A stretch of DNA of 64,000 nt from Bacteroidota bacterium. GTDB lineage: Bacteria; Bacteroidota; Bacteroidia; Bacteroidales; JACABE01. Positions 8,690 to 60,750 of the stretch are shown in pieces (the stretch's first letter is position 1; each line of letters opens with the position of its first letter). The translations under genes and the position numbers were made by a program. The stretch lies in NCBI GenBank assembly GCA_013377005.1, contig JACABE010000017.1, positions 9,096 through 73,095 of the forward strand. The letters are read 5' to 3'. The notes below the pieces were generated by a model that ran no database searches, had not been told where the DNA came from, and saw nothing but the letters and a program-made list of their open reading frames with translations.

Positions 8690-9067
8690 ATGACTGAAAA
8701 TGAGATTTCAGAAAAGATAATCGGATGTGCAATCAAAGTTCATAAAGCACTTGGTCCAGGTTTATTAGAAAGTTCTTATCTTGAATGTCTTTATTATGAA
8801 TTACAGAAATCAGGTTTAAAAGTTGAAAAACAAAAAGCTTTACCTTTAATTTACAATGAAGTAAAATTAGAAATTGGATACCGTTTGGATTTGCTTGTTG
8901 AAGGCAAAGTTGTGGTTGAACTAAAAACAATTGAAGCATTAAATGATATCCATACAGCACAAGTAATTACCTATTTAAAATTATCTGCCTGTAAACTCGG
9001 ATTGCTTATGAACTTTAATGTATTACGCTTAATAGATGGTTTAAAAAGAATTGCAAATAATTTATAA
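8690..9067 (+). CDS. GxxExxY family protein (PD-(D/E)XK-like)
   Basis: 125 aa with GPGLLESSY (G-x-x-E-x-x-Y) near the N-terminus and the DLLVEGKVVVELK core typical of this family. Confidence 0.8.
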   Translation: MTENEISEKIIGCAIKVHKALGPGLLESSYLECLYYELQKSGLKVEKQKALPLIYNEVKLEIGYRLDLLVEGKVVVELKTIEALNDIHTAQVITYLKLSACKLGLLMNFNVLRLIDGLKRIANNL

Positions 9068-9074
9068 CTACTTG

Positions 9075-9876: not shown

Positions 9877-10656
9877 ATGAAAGTAGTTATTCTTGCCGGA
9901 GGGTTGGGTTCAAGATTGAGTGAAGAAACCACACTAAAACCAAAACCGATGGTTGAAATTGGAGGAAGACCAATACTTTGGCATATAATGAAAATATATT
10001 CTCATTATGGATATAATGACTTTATTATTTGTTGTGGCTATAAAGGCTATATGATAAAAGAATATTTTGCCAATTATTTTTTACACCAAGCAGATGTAAC
10101 TATTGATTTAAAACAAAACAAACTTGAAGTTCACCAATCTAATGTTGAGCCATGGAGAATTACATTAATTGATACCGGCCTCGATACAATGACGGGTGGA
10201 AGAATAAAAAAAATTCAGAAATACATAGGAAATGAACCATTTATGTTAACGTATGGAGATGGATTAGGGAATGTTAATATTAAAGAATTGGTCGAATTTC
10301 ATACTAAACAAAATAAACTTGCAACGGTTACTGTTGTTCAGCCTTCAGGCAGATTTGGGGCAATTCATTTTAATCAGGAAAATTCTGTTGAAATTTTTGC
10401 ATTTCAGGAAAAACCCAAAGGTGATAATACATGGATAAATGGAGGCTTTTTTGTTCTCCAACCGGAAGTGTTTGATTATATAAAAGATGGCGATTCCACA
10501 ATTTGGGAAAGAGAGCCATTAGAAACGCTGGCTAAAGACAAACAGCTTCACGCATTCAGGCATTATGGGTTTTGGAAACCTATGGATACTATTCGCGACA
10601 AAGAAGATTTAGAAGATTTATGGAAAACCGATAAATGCGACTGGAAATTATGGTAG
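9877..10656 (+). CDS. rfbF: glucose-1-phosphate cytidylyltransferase
   Basis: MKVVILAGGLGSRLSEET..KPKPMVEIGGRPILWHIM is the characteristic RfbF/DdhA N-terminus. 259 aa. Confidence 0.9.
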   Translation: MKVVILAGGLGSRLSEETTLKPKPMVEIGGRPILWHIMKIYSHYGYNDFIICCGYKGYMIKEYFANYFLHQADVTIDLKQNKLEVHQSNVEPWRITLIDTGLDTMTGGRIKKIQKYIGNEPFMLTYGDGLGNVNIKELVEFHTKQNKLATVTVVQPSGRFGAIHFNQENSVEIFAFQEKPKGDNTWINGGFFVLQPEVFDYIKDGDSTIWEREPLETLAKDKQLHAFRHYGFWKPMDTIRDKEDLEDLWKTDKCDWKLW

Positions 10657-11729
10657 AAAACATAAACAAACTTTTTTGGAAAGGGAAAAGAGTATTAATT
10701 ACAGGTCATACTGGTTTTAAAGGTTCCTGGCTTTGTTTGATATTGAAAGAAATGGATGCTGAAGTGTATGGCTACGCATTGGATCCTCCAACACAACCCA
10801 GTCTTTTCAAGGAAGCACATATTGAAAAACTTATAACATCTTCTATTGGAGATATCCGTGATTATGAAAAGTTTTCTAAATTTCTTTTATCAGTAAAACC
10901 TGATATTATTATACACATGGCGGCACAAGCACTAGTTCGGGAATCGTATAAAAATCCGGTGGAAACTTATGCGGTTAATGTGATGGGCACTGTTAATCTT
11001 TTTGAAGCTATTCGACATACGACAGGAATAAAAGCTGTAGTAAACGTAACTACTGATAAATGTTATGAAAACCGTGAGTGGCATTGGGGATATCGCGAGA
11101 ATGAGCCGATGGGTGGATATGACCCCTATTCTAACAGTAAAGGATGTTCAGAATTAGTAACAGCATCTTTCAGGAACTCATTCTTTAATTCAAAAGACTA
11201 TAGCAAACATGGTATTGCAATAGCCACAGCTAGAGCTGGAAATGTTATTGGTGGTGGCGACTGGGCTGAAGATCGATTGATACCCGATTTTATCAGAGCT
11301 ATTTCAAAAGGAGAAAAGTTAAAAATACGAAGTCCTTTTGCTATTCGTCCTTGGCAGCATGTATTAGAACCACTTTCGGGCTATCTTATCTTAGCCGAAA
11401 AACTATTTAATAACGGAGTTGAATTTGCCGAAGCTTGGAATTTCGGACCTGATGATAATGATGCCAAAAATGTAGAGTGGATTACCTCAAAAATGTGTAA
11501 GTTGTGGGGTGAAAATGCAGCTTACGAAATTGATAACAATCCACAACCTCACGAAGCAAATTATTTAAAATTAGATTGTTCTAAAGCAAAAAATATTTTA
11601 GATTGGCATCCTCGTTGGAATTTGGAACAATCATTATCTTATATTATTGATTGGAACAAATCATTTTTAAAAGGTGATGATATGCGGGAAGTGTGCAAAA
11701 TTCAAATACGTGAATATTTTAGATTTTAA
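10650..11729 (+). CDS. rfbG: CDP-glucose 4,6-dehydratase
   Basis: FWKGKRVLITGHTGFKGSWL Rossmann motif and YSNSK catalytic motif. The start was moved to the ATG at 10650, which overlaps the rfbF stop; the track ORF starts at 10635. Confidence 0.9.
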   Translation: MVENINKLFWKGKRVLITGHTGFKGSWLCLILKEMDAEVYGYALDPPTQPSLFKEAHIEKLITSSIGDIRDYEKFSKFLLSVKPDIIIHMAAQALVRESYKNPVETYAVNVMGTVNLFEAIRHTTGIKAVVNVTTDKCYENREWHWGYRENEPMGGYDPYSNSKGCSELVTASFRNSFFNSKDYSKHGIAIATARAGNVIGGGDWAEDRLIPDFIRAISKGEKLKIRSPFAIRPWQHVLEPLSGYLILAEKLFNNGVEFAEAWNFGPDDNDAKNVEWITSKMCKLWGENAAYEIDNNPQPHEANYLKLDCSKAKNILDWHPRWNLEQSLSYIIDWNKSFLKGDDMREVCKIQIREYFRF

Positions 11730-11744
11730 TAACTAAATAATACT

Positions 11745-13058
11745 ATGAGCGATATTAAAACACTCAGAAAAGAAATAATTGAAAAAACGATTGAATATTA
11801 CCAACTGAAATTTTCAAATAAAGAATTTATAGCTGGTAAAACCAAGGTAAACTATGCCGGAAGGGTTTTCGATGAAACAGAATTGGTAAATGCAGTAGAT
11901 GCATCATTAGATTTTTGGCTCACCGAAGGACGATTTACCGAAGAATTTGCAGAAAAAATCGCAGAGTTTTTGGGAATAGAACACGTTTTACTTACAAATT
12001 CAGGTTCTTCAGCCAACTTATTGGCTTTTTCTGCTCTTACTTCAGAAAAACTTGGAGAAAAACGATTGAAATCAGGAGATGAAGTAATTTCTGTTGCAGC
12101 AAGCTTTCCCGCTACAATTACACCCATCATTCAATATGGTTTAATTCCTGTTTTTGTAGATGTTGAAATACCTACCTACAATATTGATATTGAAATGATG
12201 CGTAAAGCCATCACACCTAAAACCCGATGCATCTTTCTTGCACATACTTTAGGAAATACATTTGATATTGATGCAATTATGCAAATAGCAAAAGAACATG
12301 ATTTATGGGTTATTGAGGATAATTGTGATTCTTTTGGGAGTAAATACAATGGCAAATTTACAGGCACATTCGGACATATATCTACAATTTCTTTTTATCC
12401 AGCTCATCATATTACCACAGGTGAGGGCGGTGCAATATGCACTAACGATCCATTGCTGGCAAATTTAATCAGAGCGTTTCGCGATTGGGGACGCGATTGT
12501 TATTGTGCAGGCGGTGAAAACAATACTTGTGGCAAAAGGTATACTCAACAATTTGGAGAATTACCTATCGGTTATGATCACAAATACGTTTATTCTGAAA
12601 TTGGATATAATTTAAAAATGACCGATATTCAGGCTGCAATTGGAGCTGCACAAATGAATAAATTAGCTGATTTCTGTGAAAAAAGAAGGTTACATTTTAA
12701 TGAATGGACACGGATTTTCTCCAAATTTTCCAACTATTTTATTTTACCAAATGCTACAGAAAAATCGGATCCTTCATGGTTTAGTTTTATAATTACTTTA
12801 AAAGATAACTGTCCGTTCACACGTGATGAAATAACAAAATATTTGGATCAAAATCTTATTGAAACACGTAATTTGTTTGCAGGAAACATTGTTAAACAGC
12901 CAGCTTTTATTCATAAAAAATGGCGAATTGCAGATCATCTCAAAAATACCGATTATATTATGAACAATACTTTCTTTTTAGGAACGTATCCGGGATTAAC
13001 AAAAGAGATGTTTGATTATGTTGAAAATGTAGTATCTGAATACATAAGAAAATTTTAA
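11745..13058 (+). CDS. rfbH: CDP-6-deoxy-L-threo-D-glycero-4-hexulose 3-dehydrase (E1, PMP and 2Fe-2S dependent)
   Basis: 437 aa DegT-fold protein. SFYPAHHITTGEGG has His where aminotransferases carry the Schiff-base Lys. An exact C-x57-C-x-C-x7-C spacing (NCDS...DCYCAGGENNTC) matches the E1 iron-sulfur motif. Confidence 0.9.
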   Translation: MSDIKTLRKEIIEKTIEYYQLKFSNKEFIAGKTKVNYAGRVFDETELVNAVDASLDFWLTEGRFTEEFAEKIAEFLGIEHVLLTNSGSSANLLAFSALTSEKLGEKRLKSGDEVISVAASFPATITPIIQYGLIPVFVDVEIPTYNIDIEMMRKAITPKTRCIFLAHTLGNTFDIDAIMQIAKEHDLWVIEDNCDSFGSKYNGKFTGTFGHISTISFYPAHHITTGEGGAICTNDPLLANLIRAFRDWGRDCYCAGGENNTCGKRYTQQFGELPIGYDHKYVYSEIGYNLKMTDIQAAIGAAQMNKLADFCEKRRLHFNEWTRIFSKFSNYFILPNATEKSDPSWFSFIITLKDNCPFTRDEITKYLDQNLIETRNLFAGNIVKQPAFIHKKWRIADHLKNTDYIMNNTFFLGTYPGLTKEMFDYVENVVSEYIRKF

Positions 13059-13063
13059 TAAAA

Positions 13064-13753
13064 ATGGCTATCGTTAAAAAATACCCGACAGAGATAGTCT
13101 CTATTGAACAACCAATAAAAGACATCTTTACTTTACAGATGAAATCATTGGGTGGTTCTTATAAATATGCTCCCGGTCAGTTTCTACATTTTGCATTAGA
13201 TGAATACGATCCAAGTTCCGGATGGCCGGAATCCCGTTGTTTTAGCATGCAATCCAGTGCAAAAGATGAATTGATTAAAATTACTTTTGCAGTGAAAGGT
13301 CGTTTTACAAAAAGAATGGCAACTGAATTGATGGCAGGTAGCTTGGTAACATTGAAACTACCTTACGGAGATTTATTTACACAAGAACATTGCAAAGAAA
13401 ATACTGTTTTTATTGCAGGAGGTACGGGCATTACACCATTTCTTTCGTTGTTTACAGACCCTGATTTTGCTTTTTACAAAAACCCTTTTTTATTTGCAGG
13501 CTTTCAAAACAAAGAATTAAATTTATATCATGATGAATTAAAGATTGCTATGCAAATCAATCCGAACCTTATAATAAACTATATTTATCAAGACAAACAA
13601 GGAATGTTGGATATTGCTAAAATCCTTAATAAAAGTGATAGCAAAAGCTCTTTCTTTATTTCAGGACCGCCTGAGATGATAAAAACGTTTAAAAAATATC
13701 TTATACAGCAAGAAATACACGAAAACCAAATTAAAACAGATGATTGGGAGTAA
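13064..13753 (+). CDS. FNR-type flavin reductase, E3 (AscD/DdhD)-like but lacking the ferredoxin domain
   Basis: 229 aa. RCFSMQS flavin-binding motif and GGTGITP nucleotide-binding motif. Only two Cys in the whole protein, so no plant-type 2Fe-2S site. Confidence 0.65.
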   Translation: MAIVKKYPTEIVSIEQPIKDIFTLQMKSLGGSYKYAPGQFLHFALDEYDPSSGWPESRCFSMQSSAKDELIKITFAVKGRFTKRMATELMAGSLVTLKLPYGDLFTQEHCKENTVFIAGGTGITPFLSLFTDPDFAFYKNPFLFAGFQNKELNLYHDELKIAMQINPNLIINYIYQDKQGMLDIAKILNKSDSKSSFFISGPPEMIKTFKKYLIQQEIHENQIKTDDWE

Positions 13754-14945
13754 AACAAAAATAAAAAACCTATTACGAAGTTGTCCAATTTGTGACAACA
13801 CCGATGGCGAAATACTTCATAACCAGCGATTTTTTTTGCCTGAAAACCACATTTTACCTTCCAATTATGATGTAGTTTGTTGTAATACTTGTGGCTTTGT
13901 CTTTGCTGACACTTCTGCAAACCAGAAGACATATAACATCTTTTATCAGGAAATGTCTAAATATGAAGATGTTAAAACAGCAAGTGGTGGTGGTGACAAA
14001 ACTTATGATTTATCACGTTTAAAAGAAACAGCTGAAGATATTGAAAACTTAATTCCATCAAAGAACAGTAGTATTCTTGATATTGGTTGTGGAAACGGTG
14101 GTTTGTTAATGGAACTAAAAAAATTGGGATTTACTAACTTAACAGGACTTGATCCTTCACCCGTTTGTGTAAATAATATTTTAAATAAGGGGATTGAAGC
14201 AAAATTAGGTGGAATTTTTAATATTAGTACATTAAATAAAAAGTATGATTTTATAATCTTCTCCCATGTGTTTGAACATTTAGTAGATATACAATCTGCC
14301 GTAAAAAACATCTCTGAATTATTAAGTCAAGATGGATTAGTTTATATTGAAACACCTGATGCTTCACTTTACTATGAGTTCTATGTTGCTCCTTTTCATT
14401 ATTTTGACATTGAACATATCAACCATTTCTGTTCAGTATCACTTATAAATATCTTCTCAAAATTTGATTATAATTGTAAAAAATCTGAACAAAAGAAAAT
14501 ACAAGTTTCTGAAACAGTAGAATACCCAGCTGTTTATTGTTGCTTTACGAAAAGCGATATTAATTCTTTTTCAACTTATAAAATTAATGATAATTTAAAA
14601 AAGAATATATTAAAATATATTCTTCGTTCAAATAATGAATTAATATTTCCTGAATTAATAGATTATGTAAATAATAAAACACCTGTAATCGTTTTTGGTG
14701 CAGGAAGTTTTACACTTAGCTTAATTGAGAACACTATTTTAGGTAAGTGCAATATTATTGCTTTTATTGACAATGACTCAAAGAAACAAGGAAATATTAT
14801 TAATGGAATTTGTGTTTATGGAAAGGAATTTCTTTATAAATCAGATGCTGTGATTATTATTTGTTCAGCTCTATTTAGTTTCGAAATTGAACAGGAAATC
14901 AAATCAATGTGCATTAAGAATCGAATTCTAAAAATAAACACATAA
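13740..14945 (+). CDS. SAM-dependent methyltransferase with N-terminal 4-Cys zinc ribbon and C-terminal Rossmann-like domain (possible NDP-hexose C-methyltransferase type)
   Basis: CPICD...CCNTCG zinc ribbon, ILDIGCGNGG SAM motif, C-terminal VIVFGAGSFT...IAFIDND domain. 401 aa. Confidence 0.65.
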   Translation: MIGSKTKIKNLLRSCPICDNTDGEILHNQRFFLPENHILPSNYDVVCCNTCGFVFADTSANQKTYNIFYQEMSKYEDVKTASGGGDKTYDLSRLKETAEDIENLIPSKNSSILDIGCGNGGLLMELKKLGFTNLTGLDPSPVCVNNILNKGIEAKLGGIFNISTLNKKYDFIIFSHVFEHLVDIQSAVKNISELLSQDGLVYIETPDASLYYEFYVAPFHYFDIEHINHFCSVSLINIFSKFDYNCKKSEQKKIQVSETVEYPAVYCCFTKSDINSFSTYKINDNLKKNILKYILRSNNELIFPELIDYVNNKTPVIVFGAGSFTLSLIENTILGKCNIIAFIDNDSKKQGNIINGICVYGKEFLYKSDAVIIICSALFSFEIEQEIKSMCIKNRILKINT

Positions 14946-14990
14946 AGTACAGAACTTGCTAAAAATAAGCTTGTTTATAACCATTAAAAG

Positions 14991-16073
14991 ATGAAAGAAG
15001 AAATGAATTTTAAAAATGAAATAAGTGAAAACCAATTTTATATTTTTGGTGCCGGAAATACTGCAATTAAAGTGATGCAAGTGCTACAAAATACTGGCAA
15101 ATCAATAGCTTCTTTCATTGTAACTTCCAAACCAAACTTTCCTGAAATAAACAATATTAGGGTTATTGAACTTAAGGAAACATCAACTTTAGATAAAAAT
15201 ATACCCATAATAATCGCCATTTTTAATAGAGAACCTAATGCGTTTTTGCAAGATATTATCACAAACCTAAAATCCTTTGGTTTTAATAAAATCCTGACTT
15301 ATCCCGAATTTCATTCTTTTTTTTCAGCACAATTGGGTGATACAGTTTGGCTGACCGATAAAAACTATTATTCCAAGAATATTGGAAAATATTTGAATGT
15401 TCAGAAATTATTTAAAGATCCAATAAGCATAGACACCTATTCAATAATAATTGAGTATTTAAAAACCTTTGATCCATCTTTTTTAATAAAGCCTGATTTT
15501 AAAAATCAATATTTTCCCTTAGATATAGACGTTTGGGATGGAAAGGGGGCATTTTATGATATTGGTTCGTTTGATGGTGAAAATATTTTTGATGCATATA
15601 AAGCAAAAGGTCAGCTTGATCTTGTTATTGCTTTTGAACCTGAAATGGATAACTTCCAAAAAATTGTAAATAATACGAAGTTAAAAGATAATATTACAAA
15701 CCAATTGTTTATTTATCCTTGTGGTGTTTGGTCAGAAACAACGATGCTTAAATTTGAGACTGGCGTGGGCGAGAGTTCATCTTACAGCGAACACGGCAAT
15801 CAAATAATCCCAGTTGTAAAAATTGACGAAATTATCCACACTTATCCCGGTTACTTAAAAATGGATATTGAGGGTGCTGAAATTGAAGCTTTGCTGGGGG
15901 CTAAAAAAACTATTTGTAAATATAAACCTTCATTAGCCATCAGTATTTATCATAAACCCGATCATATTTATAGTATTCCTGAACTAATTGATAGTTGGGA
16001 TTTAGGATACAATTTTTATATTCGGTTTCATGGTAATAATCTTATTGATACAGTTTTATATTGTATTCAATAA
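14991..16073 (+). CDS. FkbM-family methyltransferase with N-terminal Rossmann-like domain
   Basis: N-terminal FYIFGAGNTAIKV, then FkbM hallmarks FYDIGSFDGEN, IAFEPE, KMDIEGAEIEALLGA. Confidence 0.7.
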   Translation: MKEEMNFKNEISENQFYIFGAGNTAIKVMQVLQNTGKSIASFIVTSKPNFPEINNIRVIELKETSTLDKNIPIIIAIFNREPNAFLQDIITNLKSFGFNKILTYPEFHSFFSAQLGDTVWLTDKNYYSKNIGKYLNVQKLFKDPISIDTYSIIIEYLKTFDPSFLIKPDFKNQYFPLDIDVWDGKGAFYDIGSFDGENIFDAYKAKGQLDLVIAFEPEMDNFQKIVNNTKLKDNITNQLFIYPCGVWSETTMLKFETGVGESSSYSEHGNQIIPVVKIDEIIHTYPGYLKMDIEGAEIEALLGAKKTICKYKPSLAISIYHKPDHIYSIPELIDSWDLGYNFYIRFHGNNLIDTVLYCIQ

Positions 16074-16085
16074 CAAAAATAATCA

Positions 16086-17123
16086 ATGAAAAAATCTCTT
16101 CAAAACGATCTCGATTATATATTTAATAAAACAAGCCATTTGGTTAACGAATTGGATGGCAAAACAATTTTTATAACTGGTGGAACTGGTTTCATAGGGA
16201 AATGCATACTTGAATATTTTCTTTGGCTTAACCAGTATAAATCTATTACGTTTAATATTATTGTATTATCGCGTAATCCTGATTATTTTTTAGGAAAATT
16301 CCCTAAATTTATTGTCCCCTTTATTCAATTTGTAAAAGGAGATGTAACAGAATTCGATTATTCCAAATTGCCTCATAGTGATATTATTATACATGCTGCT
16401 ACCGAAGCTGATGCAAAGCTAAATCACGAGCAACCGCTTAAAATGATAAATACAATTGTCGAGGGTACAAGAAAAGTGTTCGATTATGGGGTGAAAGTTA
16501 AATCGCAAAAAGTTTTATATTTAAGCAGTGGTGCTGTTTATGGCGTTCAACCCGATAATATAGTTGGATTTTCAGAGAATTATTATGGTGGACCTAATGT
16601 TCTCAATACAGCTTCGGCTTATTCCGAGGCAAAACGGTTTTCTGAACTCTATTGTTCTTGTTATCAGAAACAATATCAGATGAATGTTGTTATAGCTCGC
16701 TGTTTTGCATTTGTAGGTCCATACTTGCCATTAGACATGCACTTTGCAATTGGCAATTTTATTGGAAACGGCTTAAAAGGCGAGGATATAATCATTAAAG
16801 GAAATGGGAGCCCTCTTCGTTCTTATATGTATGCTGCTGATTTAGTGATTTGGTTATTATATGCATTACTCAGAGGTGAAAGCGGACAAGCATATAATAT
16901 TGGATCTGAAAAATCATTATCTATTAAAGAATTAGCTATAGAGGTTGCTAAATTTTTTCCGAAGTTGTCTGTTAAAATTTTAGGCGAATCTAACCCAACC
17001 GATAGGAATCAGAACTATATTCCATGTATTAAAAAAATTAAGACAGAATTGGCAGTGCCTGAAATATTATCACTTCAGGAGGCTATTGGTAGAACAATAA
17101 TGTTTCATACATCTGATGAGTAA
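16086..17123 (+). CDS. NAD-dependent epimerase/dehydratase-family (extended SDR) sugar-nucleotide reductase/epimerase
   Basis: FITGGTGFIGKC Rossmann motif and YSEAK (YxxxK) catalytic motif. 345 aa. Confidence 0.8.
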   Translation: MKKSLQNDLDYIFNKTSHLVNELDGKTIFITGGTGFIGKCILEYFLWLNQYKSITFNIIVLSRNPDYFLGKFPKFIVPFIQFVKGDVTEFDYSKLPHSDIIIHAATEADAKLNHEQPLKMINTIVEGTRKVFDYGVKVKSQKVLYLSSGAVYGVQPDNIVGFSENYYGGPNVLNTASAYSEAKRFSELYCSCYQKQYQMNVVIARCFAFVGPYLPLDMHFAIGNFIGNGLKGEDIIIKGNGSPLRSYMYAADLVIWLLYALLRGESGQAYNIGSEKSLSIKELAIEVAKFFPKLSVKILGESNPTDRNQNYIPCIKKIKTELAVPEILSLQEAIGRTIMFHTSDE

Positions 17124-17772
17124 TTTTGAAAACATAATATTTGATTTTGATGGAACTTTGGTTGATTCTCAGGCTGATATAAAAGATTCCTTAAAAGCTG
17201 CTATTTATAAAATTAAAGGTGTTAATATTGATAGTTCTTCTTTTAAAATCGGACCTCCCTTAGAAGAAATGATAAAAACAATTTTAATAAATATCTCGCA
17301 AGATGAAACGAATAAGATTGTAAACAGCTTTAGGGCAATCTATAACGAAAGTGGATTTAATAAAACATTTTGTTACAGAGGGATTGAAAATCTATTAAAA
17401 ACCTTAAAAGAAACAAATAAACGTATTTATATTGCCACTAATAAGCCGGAAAATTTAACAAAAAAAATAATAAAAAAACTTAATATTGACTTTTTTGATG
17501 ATATTTGTACTGTTGACAAAATTGAAGGTGTCTTTTTATTAAAAAAAGAAATGATATCTTTGCTGATTAAAAAAAATAAACTTAATCGAAAAACAACGCT
17601 GATGATTGGTGATAGTGCATCAGATGTAAGATCTGGAAGAGAAAATGATATTACAACCATCGGTGTTGGTTATGGTTATGGAATTAGGGAGGAAATAATT
17701 AAAGCAATTCCAGATTTTTATTTTGATACAACACAGCAATTAATTGATTTTTTAATACACCAACCAAATTAA
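17116..17772 (+). CDS. HAD-IA family phosphatase (phosphoglycolate phosphatase-like)
   Basis: HAD motifs FDFDGTLVDS (I), ATNK (II/III) and GDSASD (IV). Confidence 0.8.
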   Translation: MSNFENIIFDFDGTLVDSQADIKDSLKAAIYKIKGVNIDSSSFKIGPPLEEMIKTILINISQDETNKIVNSFRAIYNESGFNKTFCYRGIENLLKTLKETNKRIYIATNKPENLTKKIIKKLNIDFFDDICTVDKIEGVFLLKKEMISLLIKKNKLNRKTTLMIGDSASDVRSGRENDITTIGVGYGYGIREEIIKAIPDFYFDTTQQLIDFLIHQPN

Positions 17773-17779
17773 ATTATAT

Positions 17780-18871
17780 ATGAACCGTGATATTTTTGAA
17801 GATTTATTTGTGCTTGAAATGGCCAATAATCACTGGGGGAGTCTTGACAGAGGACTGAAAATTATTAATGCTTTTGGACAGATTGTTCGTTTTAATAATG
17901 TTCAGGCAGCAATAAAATTGCAATTTAGAGATGTTGATAATTTTATTCATAAAGATTTTCAAAAAAGGGATGATATTCGATATATTAAAAAAACAATCGA
18001 TACAAAATTGTCAAAAGAAAATTTGGCTATTTTAGTAAATAATATTCGTAAAGCAGGATGTATTCCAATGACCACTCCTTTTGATGAAGCTTCTGTTGAT
18101 TTAGGTATGGAATTAGGGATTCAATTATTTAAAATAGCAAGTTCTGATTTAAACGACTGGCCACTGATTGAAAAAATTGCAAAAACAAAAAAACCTGTAA
18201 TAGTATCAACAGGGGGTTCTTCTGTAAAAGATCTTGACGATTTAGTTACTTTTTTTGAGAATAGAAATATTCCACTTGCAATAAATCATTGCGTTTCTCT
18301 TTATCCTTCTGAAGATTCTAATCTAGAAATCAATCAAATAGATTTTTTAAAAAATCGTTATCCAAATCATACCATAGGTTATTCAACCCACGAATATCAT
18401 TCATGGGATTATTCGTTGATGATTGCTTATGCAAAAGGTGCCCGAACTTTTGAAAGACATATTGATATCGAAGATGGAGGTATAAGTGTTGCACCATACT
18501 GCTCTTTACCCCATCAAATTGATACTTGGTTTAAATCATTTCATAAGGTGAAAGAAATGTGTGGCAATAGTGGTACTACCAAAAGAATACCACCCAAAGA
18601 AGAGATTCAATATCTTGATGCTCTGGTACGAGGAGTTTATGTTAAAAGAGATTTACCCGAAGGTTATGTAATTAAGCATGAAACTATCGATAATGACATT
18701 TATTTGGCAATTCCTTTGCAAAAAGGACAAATATCTTGTCGTGAGCTAATGTCGGGTGAAGTTTTATTAAGAGCTATGAAAAAGGACGAACCAGTAATGA
18801 TTGATACAATTGACAGTCCTTATTCTTATAATGAATCATTAAAACAACAAATTTATAATCGTGGCATATAA
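17780..18871 (+). CDS. NeuB/SpsE-family PEP-dependent aldol-type synthase with C-terminal SAF-like domain
   Basis: 363 aa. N-terminal LEMANNHWGS aligns with the NeuB IAEIGxNHxG motif, followed by a TIM-barrel-like region and a C-terminal RDLPEG...GE SAF-type segment. Confidence 0.65.
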   Translation: MNRDIFEDLFVLEMANNHWGSLDRGLKIINAFGQIVRFNNVQAAIKLQFRDVDNFIHKDFQKRDDIRYIKKTIDTKLSKENLAILVNNIRKAGCIPMTTPFDEASVDLGMELGIQLFKIASSDLNDWPLIEKIAKTKKPVIVSTGGSSVKDLDDLVTFFENRNIPLAINHCVSLYPSEDSNLEINQIDFLKNRYPNHTIGYSTHEYHSWDYSLMIAYAKGARTFERHIDIEDGGISVAPYCSLPHQIDTWFKSFHKVKEMCGNSGTTKRIPPKEEIQYLDALVRGVYVKRDLPEGYVIKHETIDNDIYLAIPLQKGQISCRELMSGEVLLRAMKKDEPVMIDTIDSPYSYNESLKQQIYNRGI

Positions 18872-20685
18872 TGATTAGAATCTCTGATTTTATTTTTAAA
18901 TATCTTGAAGAATATGGAATTGAAGATATTTTTATGATTACTGGTGGTGGAGCAATGCACCTGAATGATGCTTTGAGTAGAAATAAAAAAATAAACTATA
19001 TCTGTAATCATCATGAGCAAGCTTCAGCAATTGCAGCTGAAGGATATGCAAGAATTGCGAATAAACTTGCAGTTGTTGTTGTTACAAGTGGTCCCGGTGG
19101 TACAAATACACTAACTGGTTTGATTGGCCAATGGCTTGATTCTGTTCCGGTTTTATATATTTCGGGTCAGGTAAAATTTGAAACTACAATTGCTTCATGC
19201 CCTGAGTTAAACCTTCGTCAATTGGGCGATCAGGAAATAAATATTATTGATATTGTGAAACCAGTGACTAAATATGCCACTATGCTTACAGATCCAAAAA
19301 CTGTTAGGCAAGAATTGGATAAAGCCATCCATTTTGCAACTTCGGGAAGACCTGGTCCTGTTTGGATTGATGTGCCACTTAATGTTCAAGGTGCATATAT
19401 TGATGAAACACAAATTCTTGATTCGAAAATTGAAAAGGAAGAACTTTTTGACTCTTCCTTAGCCTTAAATCAAATTGAAGAGTTAGCATCGTTAATAGTA
19501 AAAGCCGAACGTCCACTTTTTCTTGCCGGTAATGGATTACGAAATGCTCATGCTACTAAACAATTTATTGATTTGATTGAGAAAACAGGTATTCCTGTTG
19601 TTACTTCTTTTCTTGGATGTGATATTATCGAAACCGATTCTCCTTTGTTTGCAGGTCGAATCGGAACCATTGGAAATCGAGCAGGTAATTTTGCTATTCA
19701 AAATGCTGATCTTTTAATATCAATAGGTTCACGCAATAATATTCGACAAACTAGTTATAACTGGCAGTGGTTTGCACGTGGAGCCAAGAAAGTTGTTGTA
19801 GATATTGACAAAGCAGAACTTTTAAAACCCACATTTAAACCAGATATTCCTATTCAATGTGATGCTTTATTTTTTGTAGATAGCTTAACCAAAACCATCA
19901 ATACTAAAACTTTACCTGATTTTTCGAAATGGGTTGAATGGTGCGGAGAACGAAAAAATAAATATTCAGCTTACTTGCCCGAGTATGCTAATTTAAAAGA
20001 ATTGGTACACCCCTATCACTTCATACAGAAACTTACGGAGGCTCTGAAAGAGAATGATATTATTACCACTGGTAATGCAACACCCAGCATTGCATATCAT
20101 CAATTAGGAATTGTGAAGAAAAAACAGCGTATTCTTTGGAACTCAGGTTGTGCATCAATGGGTTATGGTTTGTCAGCAGCAATAGGAGCTGCTTTTGCTT
20201 CCCACAAAAAACAAAATGTTATTTGTTTGGAAGGTGATGGAAGTTTGCAAATGAATATTCAGGAGTTACAAACTATTGTCTATTATCAATTACCTATTAA
20301 ACTGTTTATTTTAGACAATCGCTGTTATATTTCTATTAAACAAACACAAACAAACCTATTTAATAGTCATTTTGTTGGCGTAGATGTTGCAAATGGAGTT
20401 TCATTCCCTGATTTTACGAAAATATCAGAAGCTTATGGATTAAAAACTTTTACTATAGAAAATCATGATAATATTGAGACTATTATTGCAGAGGTTCTTG
20501 AAATTTCAGGTCCCGTTGTTTGTCATGTTAAACTGACGAATGATTATATTTTTTCGCCTAAAACATCTTCTAAAAAACTTCCTGATGGTCGATTAGTATC
20601 GGCTCCTCTGGAAGATATGTTCCCATTTTTGGACAGAGATGAATTTATGAGTAATATGATTATTAAACCTATCGACACCGAATGA
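18871..20685 (+). CDS. thiamine diphosphate-dependent acetolactate-synthase-like enzyme (YerE-like candidate)
   Basis: 604 aa with three-domain ALS architecture and a GDGSLQMNIQEL ThDP-binding motif (GDG-x24-27-N type). Confidence 0.85.
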   Translation: MIRISDFIFKYLEEYGIEDIFMITGGGAMHLNDALSRNKKINYICNHHEQASAIAAEGYARIANKLAVVVVTSGPGGTNTLTGLIGQWLDSVPVLYISGQVKFETTIASCPELNLRQLGDQEINIIDIVKPVTKYATMLTDPKTVRQELDKAIHFATSGRPGPVWIDVPLNVQGAYIDETQILDSKIEKEELFDSSLALNQIEELASLIVKAERPLFLAGNGLRNAHATKQFIDLIEKTGIPVVTSFLGCDIIETDSPLFAGRIGTIGNRAGNFAIQNADLLISIGSRNNIRQTSYNWQWFARGAKKVVVDIDKAELLKPTFKPDIPIQCDALFFVDSLTKTINTKTLPDFSKWVEWCGERKNKYSAYLPEYANLKELVHPYHFIQKLTEALKENDIITTGNATPSIAYHQLGIVKKKQRILWNSGCASMGYGLSAAIGAAFASHKKQNVICLEGDGSLQMNIQELQTIVYYQLPIKLFILDNRCYISIKQTQTNLFNSHFVGVDVANGVSFPDFTKISEAYGLKTFTIENHDNIETIIAEVLEISGPVVCHVKLTNDYIFSPKTSSKKLPDGRLVSAPLEDMFPFLDRDEFMSNMIIKPIDTE

Positions 20686-20741
20686 TAATAAACTTTATAA
20701 GGTAATTTTTCAAAAGAAAAAATTCTATAATACGAATCAAA

Positions 20742-21686
20742 ATGAAGAAAAGAATTTCTATTTTTACCCCATGTTATAATGAAGAAGAGAATGTTGAAAT
20801 CCTTTATAATGAAGTAAAAAAGGTTTTTGAACAACTTCCTCAATATGATTACGAGCATGTATTTATCGACAACAATTCTCAGGACAAAACAGTAGAAATT
20901 CTTAAAAGAATTGCCAATCAGGACAAAAAAGTTAAAATCATTGTGAACGCCCGTAATTTCGGACATATTCGCTCGCCATACCATGGTTTACTTCAGACTA
21001 CCGGAGATTGTGTGATTTCTGTTGTTGCTGATTTACAAGATCCACCGGAACTCATTCCTGAATTCCTTAAAAAATGGGAAGAAGGTTATAAGATTGTTAC
21101 TGCTGTAAAAAAGAAATCAAGAGAAAATCCATTAATGTTTTTATTGAGGAAGATTTATTATAACATTCTTGCAAAATTTTCTGAAGGAGAGCAAATTAAA
21201 AATTTTACTGGTTTTGGACTTTACGATAAGTCTTTTCTTGATATTATTCGTAAAATTGATGATCCCTATCCTTATTTTAGAGGTCTGATTTCAGAAGTAG
21301 GCTTTCAAAATACTTCTGTTGAATACACCCAGCCTAAAAGATTACACGGTAAAACAAAAAACAACTTTTATACTCTTTATGACGTAGGAATGTTAGGTTT
21401 TGTTAATCACTCTAAATTACCGTTAAGACTTGCTAGTTTTATTGGTTTTACTGTTGCTTTAATCAGTTTATTTGTTGCAATAGCTTATTTTGTTTATAAA
21501 CTAATTTATTGGGATGAATTTAAAGTTGGAACGGCACCCTTGGTTATTGGATTATTCTTTTTTTCATCCATTCAACTTTTTTTTATTGGTATTATTGGTG
21601 AATACATTGGAGCTATTCATACCCAAGTAAGAAAACGGCCTTTGGTTATTGAAAAAGAACGGATTAATTTTGACGAAACAATTTAA
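20742..21686 (+). CDS. GT2 polyprenyl-phosphate glycosyltransferase (GtrB/ArnC-like)
   Basis: ISIFTPCYNEEEN, IDNNSQD and ADLQDP motifs, plus two C-terminal TM helices, as in GtrB/ArnC/DPM1-type enzymes. Confidence 0.85.
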   Translation: MKKRISIFTPCYNEEENVEILYNEVKKVFEQLPQYDYEHVFIDNNSQDKTVEILKRIANQDKKVKIIVNARNFGHIRSPYHGLLQTTGDCVISVVADLQDPPELIPEFLKKWEEGYKIVTAVKKKSRENPLMFLLRKIYYNILAKFSEGEQIKNFTGFGLYDKSFLDIIRKIDDPYPYFRGLISEVGFQNTSVEYTQPKRLHGKTKNNFYTLYDVGMLGFVNHSKLPLRLASFIGFTVALISLFVAIAYFVYKLIYWDEFKVGTAPLVIGLFFFSSIQLFFIGIIGEYIGAIHTQVRKRPLVIEKERINFDETI

Positions 21687-21741
21687 ATAAGTTAGTATAA
21701 AGAAATAATGCATTATAAAGATTAATTAATAGGCATTTTTA

Positions 21742-22164
21742 ATGATTGAATCTGTCAACAGAATAAAAGAGTTAGTTAAAAGTGGTTTCGATTTAAAAAT
21801 TGTTAGATTTTTTTTTGTGGCTGGTATTAATACAGCGTTTGGCTATGGAGTTTTTGTTTTGTTTCTGCTTATTGGGTTACATTATGTTTTAGCAGGATTT
21901 TTGGCTACAGTAATAGGTATATTTTTTAACTTTAAAACATACGGAATACTTGTTTTTAAAAATAAAAGTAACAAATTAATATTAAGGTTTTTATTTGTAT
22001 ATTTTGTTACTTACTGTGTTGCAATTTCTTTTATTTGGGCATTTTCGCTAGTGAACGTAAACCATTACATCGCTTCAGCTATTATTGCAATTCCGAACGC
22101 CTTGTTAGGCTACTATTTAAATAAAAAATTGGTTTTTGAAAATAAAATAGCACAAAAACTATAA
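21742..22164 (+). CDS. GtrA-family small membrane protein (putative polyprenyl-P-sugar translocation component)
   Basis: 140 aa, four TM helices, RFFFVAGINTAFGYGVF start and a C-terminal LNKKLVF motif typical of GtrA. Confidence 0.75.
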   Translation: MIESVNRIKELVKSGFDLKIVRFFFVAGINTAFGYGVFVLFLLIGLHYVLAGFLATVIGIFFNFKTYGILVFKNKSNKLILRFLFVYFVTYCVAISFIWAFSLVNVNHYIASAIIAIPNALLGYYLNKKLVFENKIAQKL

Positions 22165-22216
22165 GTTAATATAAATTTGCATTCTTAATTTGCATTCAAA
22201 TTCATCTACTTAAAAT

Positions 22217-25000
22217 ATGAAAATACAATTTAAAGGGAAAATCGTTCAAAAAACGGATGAAAAAATGTCTTCTTCAATAAAGAACAATGACATTAGTGTT
22301 ATTTTTCGAGTTCATGATTTCGATAATGAAAAAAAACTATTGATAGATTCTATTTCACGAATTCGTTCAGAAAAAATAAATAATATTGAATTTTTTATTA
22401 CTTCTTCACAAACACTTACTGGTAATCAATTGCAAGAAATTGAATCAATCAATTCTTTAATCAATTTCCAAATATATCAAATTGGTAGTGTATTTGAGCC
22501 TTCAAATAATCATTGTGTTATCATTGATTGCAAGTCTGTTGAAAAGTCTTTGAATTTGAATGAAATTCTTTTTGTAAAAGGGCTTAAACCTGAAAATTCT
22601 TCAAAGCTTAAGTTTGTTTCAGACAAAATATATTTTTCTTATAAGCAACCTCTATGGATACTAAGTGAAACAGCAGCTTCGTACATTGTTGGTTCTCAAA
22701 TTGAAAATGCCTCTATTGAGTATTTCCTTCGTAAACAGCATTTGAAATACGATGAGCTTAAAATAAATCATACGAATCCCTTTACCAAGAGTTCTTTTGT
22801 TGAAAAAACAATACGTTCATTATTTAATTTATTGCGTTGGTTCCTAATATATCCAATAAAAGAAATAAAGGGAAATTACAATTTTTCAGAAGCTTTTAAG
22901 CTTAATCGCGAATCTTCAATTTATCGCTTGTTATTTTTTATAGTTGCATTTGCATTGCTTATTATAATGCCTATTATGAGTTTTGATGCCGGTATTTCCG
23001 GGGATGAGAGTGAGCATTATACTCAGTCTGAAAAAGTTTTTAAATATTATACCAGTCTCGGCAAAGACACATCAAGTCTGGTTAGCCCGTCCTTAAGGCT
23101 TTATGGACAGTCCTTTGATTTAATTGCAATAACGGTAATAAAAGTTTTTAATATTGATAAAATATACGAAACCAGACATGCATTAAATTCAATTTTCGGA
23201 TGGTTTGCTATTTTATTTACTGCACTTATTGCAGTGGAGTTAATTGGCTGGCGAGCAGGTATTATTGGATTATTTTTGATGTTTATCTCTCCTGGATTCT
23301 TGGGTCATTCATTTAATAATCCAAAAGATATTCCGTTTGCAATGGCTTACATAATGAGTTTGTATTATATGATAAGATGGTTAAAGGAAATGCCTAAACC
23401 TAGTATAAAAACTTCTATAATGGTTGCTTTTGCAATCGCAGTTGGAATTAGTATTCGTATTGGTGGTCTTTTAAGTATTGCTTATTTTGGGCTTTTTGTA
23501 GCAATGTATTTTCTCTTTACAACAGGAAAGTTGACTAACTTATTTAACAAAAATAATTTTTCTAACATAAAAAAAGCGATACTATATCTGATTGCGATAT
23601 CCGTATTAGGCTATTTTATGGGACTGTTATTATGGCCTTACGGCATAGAAGCTCCGATTAAGAACCCAATAAAAGCTCTTTCTGATATGACTAATTTTGC
23701 AGTGAGTCTTCGTCAGATATTTGAGGGTAAACAGGTATGGTCTGACAATGTGCCATGGTATTATCTGTCAAAATACATACTTATTACAATACCCATTATA
23801 GTTATTTTTGGCTTTGTATTGTTTTTTCGTCAGTTTTTTGTTAAACAAAAAAGTCTTAGAACTCTATTGCTATTTATGTTGGTATTTGCTGTTGTGTTTC
23901 CTTTGTTTTATATTGTTTGGAAAAAATCGAATGTATTTGGAGGGTGGAGGCATACGATGTTTGTTTATCCCCCAATGGTTGCCATGGCTGCTATTGGAAT
24001 CGGACAAGTTTTTAATATTATTAGGAAAAGAGTTTTTGTTTATATTGCTTTAACTTTAATTCTCGCTTTATCTTATAATCCCATTCGTCATATAATAGTA
24101 AATTATCCACTTGAATATGTGTATTACAATGAATTTGAAGGAGGTATAAAAAATGCTTTTGGTAATTATGAATTAGATTACTATGTTCATAGTTTAAAAA
24201 AAGCATCCGAATGGGTAAAATTAAATGCACAAAAAGATTCATTGGTTACTGGCAAAAAAATAAAAGTAGCTACCTGGATAACACCTCCTTTAAATTACTA
24301 TTTTAGAAAAGATACTGCTAAGTTTGAAATAGCTTTTGCTCGCTATTACGAGAGAGGAAATACTGATTGGGATTATGCCATTTATGTAAACATGGGTGTT
24401 AATTCAGCTCAGTTAAAAAATGGAACTTGGCCACCGGCTAATACGGTTCATACCATTAATGTAGATGGAAAACCTGTTTGTGCCATTTTAAAAAGAACGG
24501 ACAAAAGTGACATGTTAGGTGCTCAAGCTATGCAAATAAATGATACAACAAATGCTATTCGCTATTTCAATAAAGCATTGGAAGTAGTACCCACCAACGA
24601 AGCTGTTCTTCTTAATCTTACAGATGTATATACAAAAATGCAGAAACTTGATAGCGCAGATATTACTATTAAAAAACTATTAAAATTTGATCCTGAGCTT
24701 GACAATGCCTTATATTCTCAGGCTATTGTGTATTTTTATAAAAATGATGTTGATAATACTTTGCTTACAGCTAAAAGAATCATAAAAAATAATATTAAAT
24801 ATTATATGGCTTATTATATTGCAGCTTATGCATATATGAAAAAAAATGATTCTTATTCTGCCATAAAATCTTTAGAGGAATTATTGATACAAAATCAAGG
24901 ATTTAAACCAGCTTACCTATTGTTGGCACAAATTTATCAACAACAAGGAGATACAGAAAAAGCCCAGCATTATGCTTCAATAGCTAATCAATTGCAATAA
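22217..25000 (+). CDS. large GT-C fold (ArnT/PMT-like) membrane glycosyltransferase with N-terminal cytoplasmic domain and C-terminal TPR repeats
   Basis: 927 aa. About 230 aa soluble N-domain, then about 12 TM helices with an acidic first-loop motif (SFDAGISGDESEHY), then about 200 aa of TPR-like repeats. Confidence 0.7.
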   Translation: MKIQFKGKIVQKTDEKMSSSIKNNDISVIFRVHDFDNEKKLLIDSISRIRSEKINNIEFFITSSQTLTGNQLQEIESINSLINFQIYQIGSVFEPSNNHCVIIDCKSVEKSLNLNEILFVKGLKPENSSKLKFVSDKIYFSYKQPLWILSETAASYIVGSQIENASIEYFLRKQHLKYDELKINHTNPFTKSSFVEKTIRSLFNLLRWFLIYPIKEIKGNYNFSEAFKLNRESSIYRLLFFIVAFALLIIMPIMSFDAGISGDESEHYTQSEKVFKYYTSLGKDTSSLVSPSLRLYGQSFDLIAITVIKVFNIDKIYETRHALNSIFGWFAILFTALIAVELIGWRAGIIGLFLMFISPGFLGHSFNNPKDIPFAMAYIMSLYYMIRWLKEMPKPSIKTSIMVAFAIAVGISIRIGGLLSIAYFGLFVAMYFLFTTGKLTNLFNKNNFSNIKKAILYLIAISVLGYFMGLLLWPYGIEAPIKNPIKALSDMTNFAVSLRQIFEGKQVWSDNVPWYYLSKYILITIPIIVIFGFVLFFRQFFVKQKSLRTLLLFMLVFAVVFPLFYIVWKKSNVFGGWRHTMFVYPPMVAMAAIGIGQVFNIIRKRVFVYIALTLILALSYNPIRHIIVNYPLEYVYYNEFEGGIKNAFGNYELDYYVHSLKKASEWVKLNAQKDSLVTGKKIKVATWITPPLNYYFRKDTAKFEIAFARYYERGNTDWDYAIYVNMGVNSAQLKNGTWPPANTVHTINVDGKPVCAILKRTDKSDMLGAQAMQINDTTNAIRYFNKALEVVPTNEAVLLNLTDVYTKMQKLDSADITIKKLLKFDPELDNALYSQAIVYFYKNDVDNTLLTAKRIIKNNIKYYMAYYIAAYAYMKKNDSYSAIKSLEELLIQNQGFKPAYLLLAQIYQQQGDTEKAQHYASIANQLQ

Positions 25001-59743: not shown

Positions 59744-59786
59744 ATTTTTACCTATTCAATAAACGTCTCTGGGAATTGGACAACAA

Positions 59787-59865
59787 AAGTGGAGTCCAGA
59801 AACCATTAAAAACGGGGCGTTACCGAAAAGCCAGACGAGTAGGGAAACTTTAAAAATAATATATT
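59787..59865 (+). promoter_or_regulatory. conserved leader motif, copy 1
   Basis: Shares with 60751-60829 the identical blocks AAGTGGAGTCCAGAA, AAAAACGGGGCG, TACCGAAAAGCC and GAGTAGG, in the same order. It ends 22 nt before the ATG. Confidence 0.55.
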
Positions 59866-60726: not shown

Positions 60727-60750
60727 CGACCAATAATTTTACATTAAGAT

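Follow-up and report, generated by a model that had tools for sequence, protein, structure and literature searches.

The window analysed here, a stretch of 64,000 nucleotides (nt) with a G+C content of ~30% from contig JACABE010000017.1 of a Bacteroidales genome, carries a run of 13 genes on one strand (9877-25000, +) that overlap or are separated by gaps of no more than 56 nt. The genes rfbF, rfbG and rfbH come first. The last three genes form a triad: a family-2 glycosyltransferase (GT2) of the GtrB/ArnC type, a GtrA-family membrane protein and a GT-C glycosyltransferase of 927 amino acids (aa) that ends in tetratricopeptide repeats (TPR). Their open reading frames (ORFs) are all on the plus strand at the coordinates of Table 1, 52-56 nt apart. 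The locus likely encodes a three-component periplasmic glycosylation system, whose donor, a 3,6-dideoxyhexose derivative linked to undecaprenyl phosphate (Und-P), is made by the genes immediately upstream of the triad.

The run lies in chromosomal DNA without prophage genes and is surrounded by housekeeping genes. No terminator-like hairpin was found in any of its internal gaps. Promoter scans neither support nor oppose an internal promoter: sigma-70 elements occur near the shuffled level (114 found, 95 expected), and the Bacteroidetes-type pattern TTTG...TAnnTTTG gave 8 matches for 5.8 expected, one of which (21641-21672, upstream of gtrA) is not significant. An Rfam scan returned no regulatory RNA near the locus. 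An earlier reading of the window from its letters (the original prediction) had seen no Wzx, Wzy or initiating transferase here. This holds in the wider scan, where the Wzx, Wzy, Wzz and phosphoglycosyl-transferase families have no match among the 13 genes or the other ORFs scanned; the scan took in 0-52 kb of the window, less the ORFs below 150 aa beyond 32 kb and four longer ORFs in 32-38 kb, and left aside all of 52-64 kb.

Table 1 Genes and protein domains of the locus, with the basis of each assignment (positions in the window)
Feature	Positions	Strand	Basis
PagL-like outer-membrane protein, membership uncertain	9051-9710	+	Pfam PagL, E=1.7e-12
rfbF	9877-10656	+	NCBIfam TIGR02623, 428 bits (cutoff 300)
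rfbG	10635-11729	+	NCBIfam TIGR02622, 518 bits (cutoff 278)
rfbH	11745-13058	+	NCBIfam RfbH NF011936, 684 bits (cutoff 423)
FAD/NAD reductase, 229 aa	13064-13753	+	Pfam NAD_binding_1 and FAD_binding_8
Methyltransferase 1	13740-14945	+	Pfam
Methyltransferase 2	14991-16073	+	Pfam
Short-chain dehydrogenase/reductase (SDR) epimerase/reductase	16086-17123	+	Pfam
Haloacid dehalogenase (HAD) phosphatase	17116-17772	+	Pfam
NeuB-like phosphoenolpyruvate (PEP)-condensing enzyme	17780-18871	+	Pfam
Thiamine diphosphate (ThDP) enzyme, acetolactate-synthase superfamily, possibly YerE-like	18871-20685	+	Pfam
GT2 (clade A), 314 aa, GtrB/ArnC-type polyprenyl-phosphate glycosyltransferase	20742-21686	+	Pfam, PDB alignment, hydropathy
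GtrA-family small membrane protein, 140 aa, putative Und-P-sugar flippase or accessory subunit	21742-22164	+	Pfam
GT-C protein, 927 aa	22217-25000	+	ORF, AlphaFold2
GT-C residues 1-230: cytoplasmic (predicted) degenerate GT-A (GtrB-like) domain and juxtamembrane helix 194-217	22217-22906	+	Model, alignment
GT-C residues 234-629: membrane core, ~11 helices	22916-24103	+	Model, hydropathy
GT-C residues 640-760: periplasmic (predicted) alpha/beta domain, ~120 aa	24134-24496	+	Model, alignment
GT-C residues 764-927 and stop: five TPR repeats, predicted periplasmic	24506-25000	+	Pfam TPR, PDB, Foldseek

Pfam, PDB alignment and Foldseek agree on the triad as it had originally been read, a GtrB/ArnC-type enzyme, a GtrA protein and a GT-C enzyme. 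The GT2 matches Glycos_transf_2 (PF00535) with 93 bits (cutoff 23.3) and aligns over its full length both with the Synechocystis GtrB structure 5EKP (177 bits, E=6e-51, residues 5-304 to 28-326) and with ArnC in the PDB (104-106 bits). Its DXD motif region, ADLQD, occupies residues 96-100, and two C-terminal hydrophobic helices are seen by hydropathy at ~233-251 and 267-292. The best NCBIfam model is PgfS, with 195 bits over the full length against an equivalog cutoff of 500; the ArnC model NF007986 gives 127 bits against 529. Scores this far below both cutoffs argue for a GtrB/ArnC-type enzyme that is not an ortholog of either named protein. The 140-aa protein matches GtrA_DPMS_TM (PF04138) with 42.3 bits (cutoff 26.1) and shows hydrophobic segments by hydropathy.

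In the AlphaFold2 model of the GT-C protein (predicted local distance difference test score, pLDDT, 82; predicted template-modelling score, pTM, 0.81) an N-terminal alpha/beta domain (~25-185) and a long helix (194-217) precede ~11 membrane helices, a further alpha/beta domain and the TPR region, giving the GT-C membrane core with a TPR tail that had been anticipated. For the membrane part Foldseek returns STT3 and ArnT at E ~1e-7 to 4e-6, among them STT3 8age_A (E=1.2e-7) and 6s7o_A (E=3.9e-7) and ArnT 5f15 (E=3e-6), as whole-model alignments with low TM-scores (0.29-0.48) and a root-mean-square deviation of 8-14 Å. The TPR region matches the Pfam TPR families, CTPR and MamA among PDB sequences, and MamA, CTPR and the OGT TPR in Foldseek. 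It was put at about 200 aa in the original prediction; the repeats are there, ten helices forming five of them (764-925), but they span ~165 aa and the separate alpha/beta domain lies before them. Three TPR asparagines (N794, N859 and N893) were considered as an OGT-like peptide-binding ladder and rejected, being at the ordinary P-x-N position of the TPR consensus.

The N-terminal domain modelled alone (residues 20-222, pLDDT 82) matches the GT-A enzymes TarP, GtrB, RmlT and PcManGT in Foldseek (E ~5e-6 to 2e-5, TM ~0.5), which bears out the degenerate GT-A fold suspected there. A Pfam GT2 match is present in the N-domains of 10 of 30 relatives and absent from that of the window. In the alignment the relatives read FSIIVP...ELILVDN...VLVFDID and the window clade, which has lost these motifs, reads ISVIFR...IEFFITSS...VIIDCK with a 16-residue deletion. 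Within the domain proper the family shares no invariant residue; W208 (invariant), P213 and E216, which are conserved, sit in the juxtamembrane helix. Judged by this loss of motifs, the domain is probably catalytically dead in the window lineage and may serve as a docking or scaffold module.

Conservation is concentrated beyond this domain. In 31 long-form relatives D263, E264, N367, N368, D371, R414 and W577-R578-H579 are invariant, together with a cluster in the predicted periplasmic alpha/beta domain (E652, D654, Y655, Y656 and W718-D719-Y720), and all of these except N368 stay invariant in 40 mixed relatives. The core motifs are NNPKDIPF (367-374) and SNVxGGWRH (571-579). The GT-A-like domain is assumed to be cytoplasmic because the protein has no signal peptide and the fold is a nucleotide-binding one. 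With such an N-in start and eleven helices, the periplasmic parts would be the first loop, the alpha/beta domain and the TPR region; the pair D263-E264 (codons 23003-23008) lies just past the first transmembrane (TM) helix, in that loop. Of the 40 relatives, 26 match Pfam PMT_2 and 19 match PMT at E<=0.1, weakly (best E 3.5e-10). Searched whole against the PDB, the 927-aa sequence finds TPR proteins only; a MIR domain has no Pfam match in it, and the TMTC-specific Pfam domain is matched neither by it nor by its relatives. Since sequence and profile searches gave no GT-C, the family assignment relies on the fold and the weak Pfam matches, by which the enzyme may be placed in the PMT/ArnT clan without being filed as a member of GT39, GT83 or GT105. 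Public annotation calls these proteins 'tetratricopeptide repeat protein' or 'glycosyltransferase family 39 protein'.

Upstream of the triad, RfbF, RfbG, RfbH and the flavin reductase should, by family membership, form the core route to cytidine diphosphate (CDP)-4-keto-3,6-dideoxy-D-glucose. The 229-aa reductase beside rfbH has no 2Fe-2S ferredoxin domain; the classical E3 (AscD) is ~330 aa long and has one. The short form is kept beside rfbH in L001, L006, L049, L073 and L087-L089 (L-numbers denote individual loci of relatives, described below). The window ThDP enzyme scores 379 bits on the acetolactate synthase model, whose cutoff is 538, so it is not a true acetolactate synthase. In yersiniose synthesis CDP-4-keto-3,6-dideoxy-D-glucose is the substrate of the ThDP enzyme YerE, and for longer branches functionalised 2-keto acids from nearby aldolases have been proposed as the source (PMC9306805).

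Between rfbH/reductase and the GT2, the tailoring block (13740-20685 in the window) is hypervariable, and relatives retain rfbFGH and usually the ThDP enzyme too. In L001 (4128-8482) and L089 (5607-9964) it holds a ThDP enzyme, an HpcH/HpaI aldolase, an SDR and a DHQ-synthase-like enzyme; in L090 (774-9993) a NeuB-cupin fusion, a ThDP enzyme, a B12-radical-SAM enzyme, a methyltransferase and a SPASM radical-SAM enzyme; in L086 a reductase only. This variety is suggestive of a group of related 3,6-dideoxy sugars with a branch at C4, like yersiniose, erwiniose or caryophyllose, the keto-acid donor being made by NeuB-like or aldolase enzymes. For the window we infer a C-branched, methylated 3,6-dideoxyhexose.

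Relatives of the GT-C protein were surveyed with one genome per species. At least 551 genomes encode one, essentially all labelled Bacteroidota, and the nearest relatives come from Bacteroidales and other Bacteroidota metagenome-assembled genomes. ORFs were called around 80 of these loci and in five metagenome contigs (85 loci together) and searched with the window proteins. Of the 85 loci, 44 have a GT2 at or beside the site directly upstream of the GT-C; in 35 of them it is the immediate upstream neighbour. In a neighbour-joining tree, built like that of the GT-C proteins without bootstrap support, these enzymes fall in three clades: clade A (309-320 aa), which is monophyletic and contains the window enzyme, clade B (309-324 aa, two C-terminal TM helices) and clade C (240-300 aa, no TM helices and an ALG5-like DTQCGAK motif).

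Clade A goes with the CDP-sugar genes. rfbH, usually with rfbF and rfbG, lies upstream in all 11 clade-A loci that have enough upstream sequence. Five further clade-A homologs were sampled through the GT2, and each has rfb genes upstream; in four of the five a GtrA and/or GT-C-TPR gene then follows. Clade A is thus downstream of rfbH in 16/16 evaluable loci, compared with rfb genes in one of ~8 clade-B loci (L084) and none of ~8 clade-C loci. The coupling of triad and CDP-sugar genes, claimed originally from the window alone, is in this way upheld across relatives, and the objection that the two might not be co-conserved fails. In L006 (GT-C 85% identical) the gene order from rfbH to the GT-C is that of the window. 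The tailoring genes are different in L001 (GT-C 76%), which still has rfbG, rfbH, the reductase and the ThDP enzyme and, after them, the GT2, GtrA and GT-C. The minimal cassettes L086 (rfbF-G-H, reductase, GT2, GtrA, GT-C) and L088 (much alike, but lacking GtrA and with two additions, a flavin reductase and an FkbM methyltransferase) contain no other glycosyltransferase, so that nothing else in the cassette is left to use the CDP-sugar. After the second GT-A strand, clade A carries FIDNxS in place of the usual nucleotide-site motif F(I/V)NDGS of clades B and C, a change compatible with a different nucleotide and not a proof of one. Gene content and motifs thereby support, and do not prove, the loading of Und-P with a CDP-activated 3,6-dideoxyhexose derivative by the clade-A enzyme, and we infer that the window GT2 is an Und-P-sugar synthase that uses a CDP-sugar.

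Several observations weigh against such a system. We know of no CDP-dependent GtrB-type enzyme, and GtrB-type enzymes are described as users of uridine diphosphate (UDP)-sugars (PMC11127046). In L084 (3521-12199) the genes after rfbF-G-H are two small ORFs, a further GT2 of 283 aa, a GT2 of clade B and then the GT-C. In L090 a clade-A GT2 and GtrA have no adjoining GT-C. Many cassettes lack GtrA: of the 85 surveyed loci, 14 have a homolog no more than a few genes away from the GT-C, and a homolog is also present in L086, L087 and L090. On the side of the GT-C, the topology (11 TM, N-in, C-out) is a hand reading of AlphaFold helices and hydropathy, the window protein scores 18.4-19.5 bits on PMT_2, below the cutoff of 26.1, and a 40-sequence profile of its core finds no solved GT-C in the PDB at E<=10. 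The sequence data also point to no single acceptor.

The nucleotide question opens a different reading, in which the GT2 uses a UDP-sugar to make Und-P-glucose or Und-P-N-acetylglucosamine, the CDP-sugar goes to an unlinked cytoplasmic glycosyltransferase, and adjacency reflects co-regulation of envelope genes. The DXD region ADLQDPPE is indeed identical in clades A and B. Every characterised enzyme of the GtrB, ArnC or dolichol-phosphate mannose synthase type that we know of uses a UDP- or guanosine diphosphate-sugar, as documented for the GtrB type (PMC11127046). We nevertheless regard this reading as improbable. Clade-A GT2 and rfbH occur together in every evaluable locus, across GT-C partners only ~40% identical; the cassettes hold no other intact glycosyltransferase; clade A has its own nucleotide-site motif; and sister loci that lack the sugar genes have a clade-B GT2 instead, at that same chromosomal position. 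The O-antigen of Yersinia pseudotuberculosis gives a useful comparison, for its yersiniose pathway (YerE/YerF) likewise joins genes of the rfbFGH type to a ThDP enzyme whose substrate is CDP-4-keto-3,6-dideoxy-D-glucose. There a cytoplasmic glycosyltransferase puts the sugar into a Wzx/Wzy O-unit, whereas the only intact glycosyltransferase of the window cassette is the GtrB-type enzyme.

Comparison of the two enzymes across loci shows how the CDP-fed cassette relates to the rest of the family. In the GT-C tree, the clade-A/rfb loci lie dispersed between others that have clade B, clade C or UbiA, methyltransferase and HAD genes. The discordance holds without any tree: L044 and L039 are 78% identical in the GT-C and 35% in the GT2 (clade A against clade B), L073 and L071 68% and 33%, and the window and L002 59% and 35%, whereas the window and L049 are 42% identical in the GT-C and 76% in the GT2. 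From these sequences, the GT-C appears to have been inherited vertically across Bacteroidota while the adjoining donor module was exchanged, so that a constant enzyme seems to deliver a sugar that varies. Four kinds of lipid-phosphate-sugar synthase lie directly upstream of family members (GtrB clade A, GtrB clade B, ALG5-like clade C and UbiA with HAD), which is strong evidence at the family level for polyprenyl-monophosphate donors. It also suggests that the GT-C family tolerates, or quickly adapts to, different sugars.

The window itself seems to record one such exchange. Its closest non-rfb relatives, L002 and L009, share LysS, PDDEXK_3 and PagL upstream (PDDEXK_3 was not detected in L009), and L007 and L008 share DUF6973 and PTPS downstream with the window. 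The block from rfb to the ThDP enzyme, with the clade-A GT2, would have replaced a clade-B GT2 in situ.

The other donor modules have features of their own. The clade-C GT2 directly upstream of many family members (L003, 9216-9989; L004, 9215-9988; L011, L025 and others) has a basic amphipathic C-terminus and may be a monotopic polyprenyl-phosphate glucose synthase. In L005 (7447-9935) and in L015, L029, L037, L045, L046, L050 and L082, HAD, methyltransferase and UbiA prenyltransferase-family genes precede the GT-C, which in these loci is mostly of a 702-aa short form. This module resembles the polyprenyl-phosphoribose route of TfpW, the mycobacterial arabinan pathway and the GT136 systems.

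We propose the following course for the window system. RfbF, RfbG, RfbH and the flavin reductase would, by family membership, make CDP-4-keto-3,6-dideoxy-D-glucose, which the ThDP enzyme, NeuB-like enzyme, HAD phosphatase, SDR and two methyltransferases would turn into a C-branched and/or methylated 3,6-dideoxyhexose. On the cytoplasmic face the clade-A GT2 would then move the sugar from CDP to Und-P, a step proposed because of the co-conservation and because no other intact Leloir glycosyltransferase is present. GtrA, by analogy, would help to bring the Und-P-sugar to the periplasmic face. There the GT-C, using the invariant D263/E264, would pass the sugar to an acceptor held by the alpha/beta and TPR domains; the fold and motifs of the GT-C are seen in the model and alignment, and the chemistry is what one would expect of them. 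The concept of the three-component system reportedly goes back to Mann and Whitfield.

Precedents are the GtrA/GtrB/Gtr* and the pentofuranose systems, the former likewise encoding a polyprenyl-phosphate sugar synthase, a GtrA protein and a GT-C side by side (PMC11127046). The window GT2 aligns with GtrB over its full length, as noted above. The two differ in that the window donor route is CDP-based (rfbFGH) where Gtr uses UDP-glucose, that the window locus is chromosomal and lacks prophage genes, that its gene order is GtrB-GtrA-GT-C, and that its GT-C has TPR repeats and an N-terminal pseudo-GT-A domain.

TfpW, which arabinosylates pilin in Pseudomonas aeruginosa, is described with a similar architecture. 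The predicted topology of the window GT-C, with 11 TM helices between an N-terminus in the cytoplasm and C-terminal TPR in the periplasm, is that reported for TfpW; both systems also have a GtrA-like partner and a donor in the form of a polyprenyl-phosphate monosaccharide, and family members such as L005 have UbiA and HAD genes resembling the arabinofuranose/ribofuranose route. They differ in the sugar, in the N-terminal GT-A domain, which TfpW lacks, and in that no pilin gene adjoins the window GT-C; neither pilin nor DprE genes were found among the scanned window ORFs, and UbiA with HAD occurs only in other family members. TfpW polymerises and transfers D-arabinofuranose from a polyprenyl-phosphate donor, and by this likeness the window GT-C could be processive and build a short homopolymer of the rare sugar in place of a single residue. 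We think this quite unlikely; nothing in the GT-C sequence bears on processivity (the proline-rich chain-length motif of Emb/TfpW-like enzymes was not looked for).

For the acceptor, Ser/Thr residues of exported proteins are our tentative choice, plausible though short of probable. The nearest Pfam families of the GT-C are protein O-mannosyltransferases, and protein glycosylation by a GtrB-type enzyme with a GT-C is established in streptococci. To our knowledge the only characterised enzymes that join a GT-C core to TPR are TfpW and TMTC1-4, both of which act on proteins. In TMTC1-4 (GT105), as in the window enzyme, TPR on the lumenal or periplasmic side come after a GT-C core; TMTC and PMT (GT39) share the Asp-Glu acidic pair in the first extracytoplasmic loop and the weak PMT/PMT_2 matches of the relatives. 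The window GT-C differs in lacking the TMTC-specific and MIR domains, in falling below the Pfam cutoffs, and in being a bacterial enzyme with a dedicated donor cassette whose donor is not dolichol-phosphate-mannose. Uncharacterised prokaryotic homologs with GT-C and TPR have been noted before (PMC7801869). PgfS/PgfM and GtrB/PgtC2 of streptococci, in which a GtrB-type enzyme and GT-Cs glycosylate Ser/Thr-rich regions of exported proteins, are alike in that PgfS is the best NCBIfam match of the window GT2. They differ in being Gram-positive systems with UDP-derived glucose or N-acetylgalactosamine, and their GT-Cs (YfhO/PgfM) have no reported TPR. The hypervariable tailoring argues for a surface-exposed product and does not separate the acceptor options. 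A wider version of the protein reading, in which the GT-C-TPR enzyme is a Bacteroidota-wide protein O-glycosyltransferase, a counterpart of TMTC/TfpW that puts single rare sugars on exported or surface proteins from interchangeable donors, with a CDP-specific GtrB clade here, is conceivable and on balance doubtful.

Near the GT-C and GT2, within 10 kb, cargo proteins of the type IX secretion system (T9SS) recur in six or seven of ten Pfam-annotated loci, a count that has no background rate behind it. They carry Por_Secre_tail or CHU_C domains and Ig-like repeats, reach more than 3400 aa, and lie at 13371-15215 in L001, 15380-20283 in L002, 1-8949 in L003, 1-9034 in L004, 1-4 in L089 and 12891-20936 in L090. 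They may be acceptor candidates or just genes that are common, and are a lead only. Other recurrent neighbours (ODP/flavodoxin, PASTA, RluD, GldB, RecJ, YitT, radical-SAM MqnC-like and GHMP kinase genes) were considered as clues to the acceptor and set aside, as they look like lineage synteny.

A second acceptor, which we hold possible but less well favoured, is lipopolysaccharide or lipooligosaccharide (LPS/LOS), in its core or lipid A. The system would then be like ArnC/ArnT or the Francisella pair FlmF2/FlmK, with the PagL-like gene in the same lipid A unit. That gene is found directly upstream of the operon. PagL overlaps GtrA in L002 and L009, the nearest relatives without rfb genes, and the overlap of 4 nt in L002 suggests co-transcription there. 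The GT2 matches ArnC over its full length, the GT-C core is ArnT-like in fold, ArnT being among its Foldseek matches, the hypervariable tailoring suggests a surface-exposed epitope, and a gene of the O-antigen-ligase family (Wzy_C) is nearby in seven loci of one GT-C subclade. Against this, PagL adjacency is limited to a lineage with LysS-PDDEXK-PagL synteny, and cassettes elsewhere whose upstream flank is visible (L086, L088, L089) have no PagL. ArnT was not matched in sequence or profile searches, the GT2 is far below the ArnC equivalog cutoff, and arnA, arnB and arnD are absent from the operon genes. ArnT-type enzymes, as far as we know, have no TPR domain, and the known characterised enzymes that do join GT-C and TPR are the protein-directed TfpW and TMTC. 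Of the original proposal the PagL-like gene itself stands, and lipid A is a weak lead, PagL being tied to the LysS-synteny lineage. The Wzy_C gene (O-antigen ligase or PglL type) is encoded a few genes upstream, on the opposite strand, in L023, L026, L027, L039 (6508-7740, -), L044, L057 and L080; it could mark a connection to LPS or O-glycans, or lineage synteny, and is likewise a lead only.

The remaining option, another glycan, strikes us as rather unlikely. Here the sugar would be a side-branch added after export to a general protein O-glycan or to a capsular or exopolysaccharide, in the manner of Gtr O-antigen glucosylation. Known three-component systems mostly act on polysaccharides, and in L087 the genes GT2-GtrA-GT-C are directly followed by Wzx-like, GT11 and GT47 genes. 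Such a neighbourhood occurs in only one of ~90 loci, however, and the window locus lies amid housekeeping genes. The polysaccharide-directed GT-C of PMC11127046 has a carbohydrate-binding module, not TPR.

If exported proteins are the acceptor, the system would be a second protein glycosylation route in Bacteroidota beside the system of general O-glycosylation. The identity of the acceptor would tell whether these bacteria have such a second, TMTC-like pathway, and the importance of the locus hinges on it and on confirmation of the CDP donor. The logic, three-component periplasmic glycosylation, is known; new are the CDP-based donor route with its dedicated GtrB clade, the GT-C with a TPR tail and a vestigial GtrB-like head, and the exchange of donor modules across the phylum. 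Established three-component systems use UDP- and phosphoribosyl pyrophosphate-derived sugars. A CDP-fed version would widen the donor range of GtrB-type enzymes, would give 3,6-dideoxy and C-branched sugars a Wzx/Wzy-free route to the cell surface and, if true, would include the first CDP-dependent polyprenyl-phosphate glycosyltransferase. We found no description of this cassette or of any Bacteroidota GT-C-TPR enzyme in a literature search of incomplete coverage, and a prior description is possible. Closely related GT-Cs beside unrelated donor modules make the enzyme a candidate sugar-tolerant transferase of interest for glycoengineering, and the locus a probable hotspot for the diversity of surface antigens among gut and environmental Bacteroidales.

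Further features of the window stand apart from this argument. A small gene of the PDDEXK_3 nuclease family (8690-9067) lies just 5' of PagL, whose ORF overlaps its 3' end. A gene of the same family is found between rfbH and the reductase in L089 (3431-3802) and as two fragments in L002 (6196-6573), and it behaves like a mobile or selfish small gene. An antisense ORF of 146 aa (20544-20984, -) runs across the junction of the ThDP enzyme and the GT2; it is of low complexity, opposes two well-supported genes and is most likely spurious. An ISL3-family transposase gene (48684-49619), followed by a gene for a Fic/DOC-domain protein (50226-51701), may be a small mobile insertion unrelated to the glycosylation cassette. 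Two copies of the Rfam DUF805 cis-regulatory RNA motif (59784-59849 and 60748-60816, +; 76 and 79 bits, gathering score 51) each lie just 5' of an ORF, at 59866-60726 and 60830-61651, respectively.

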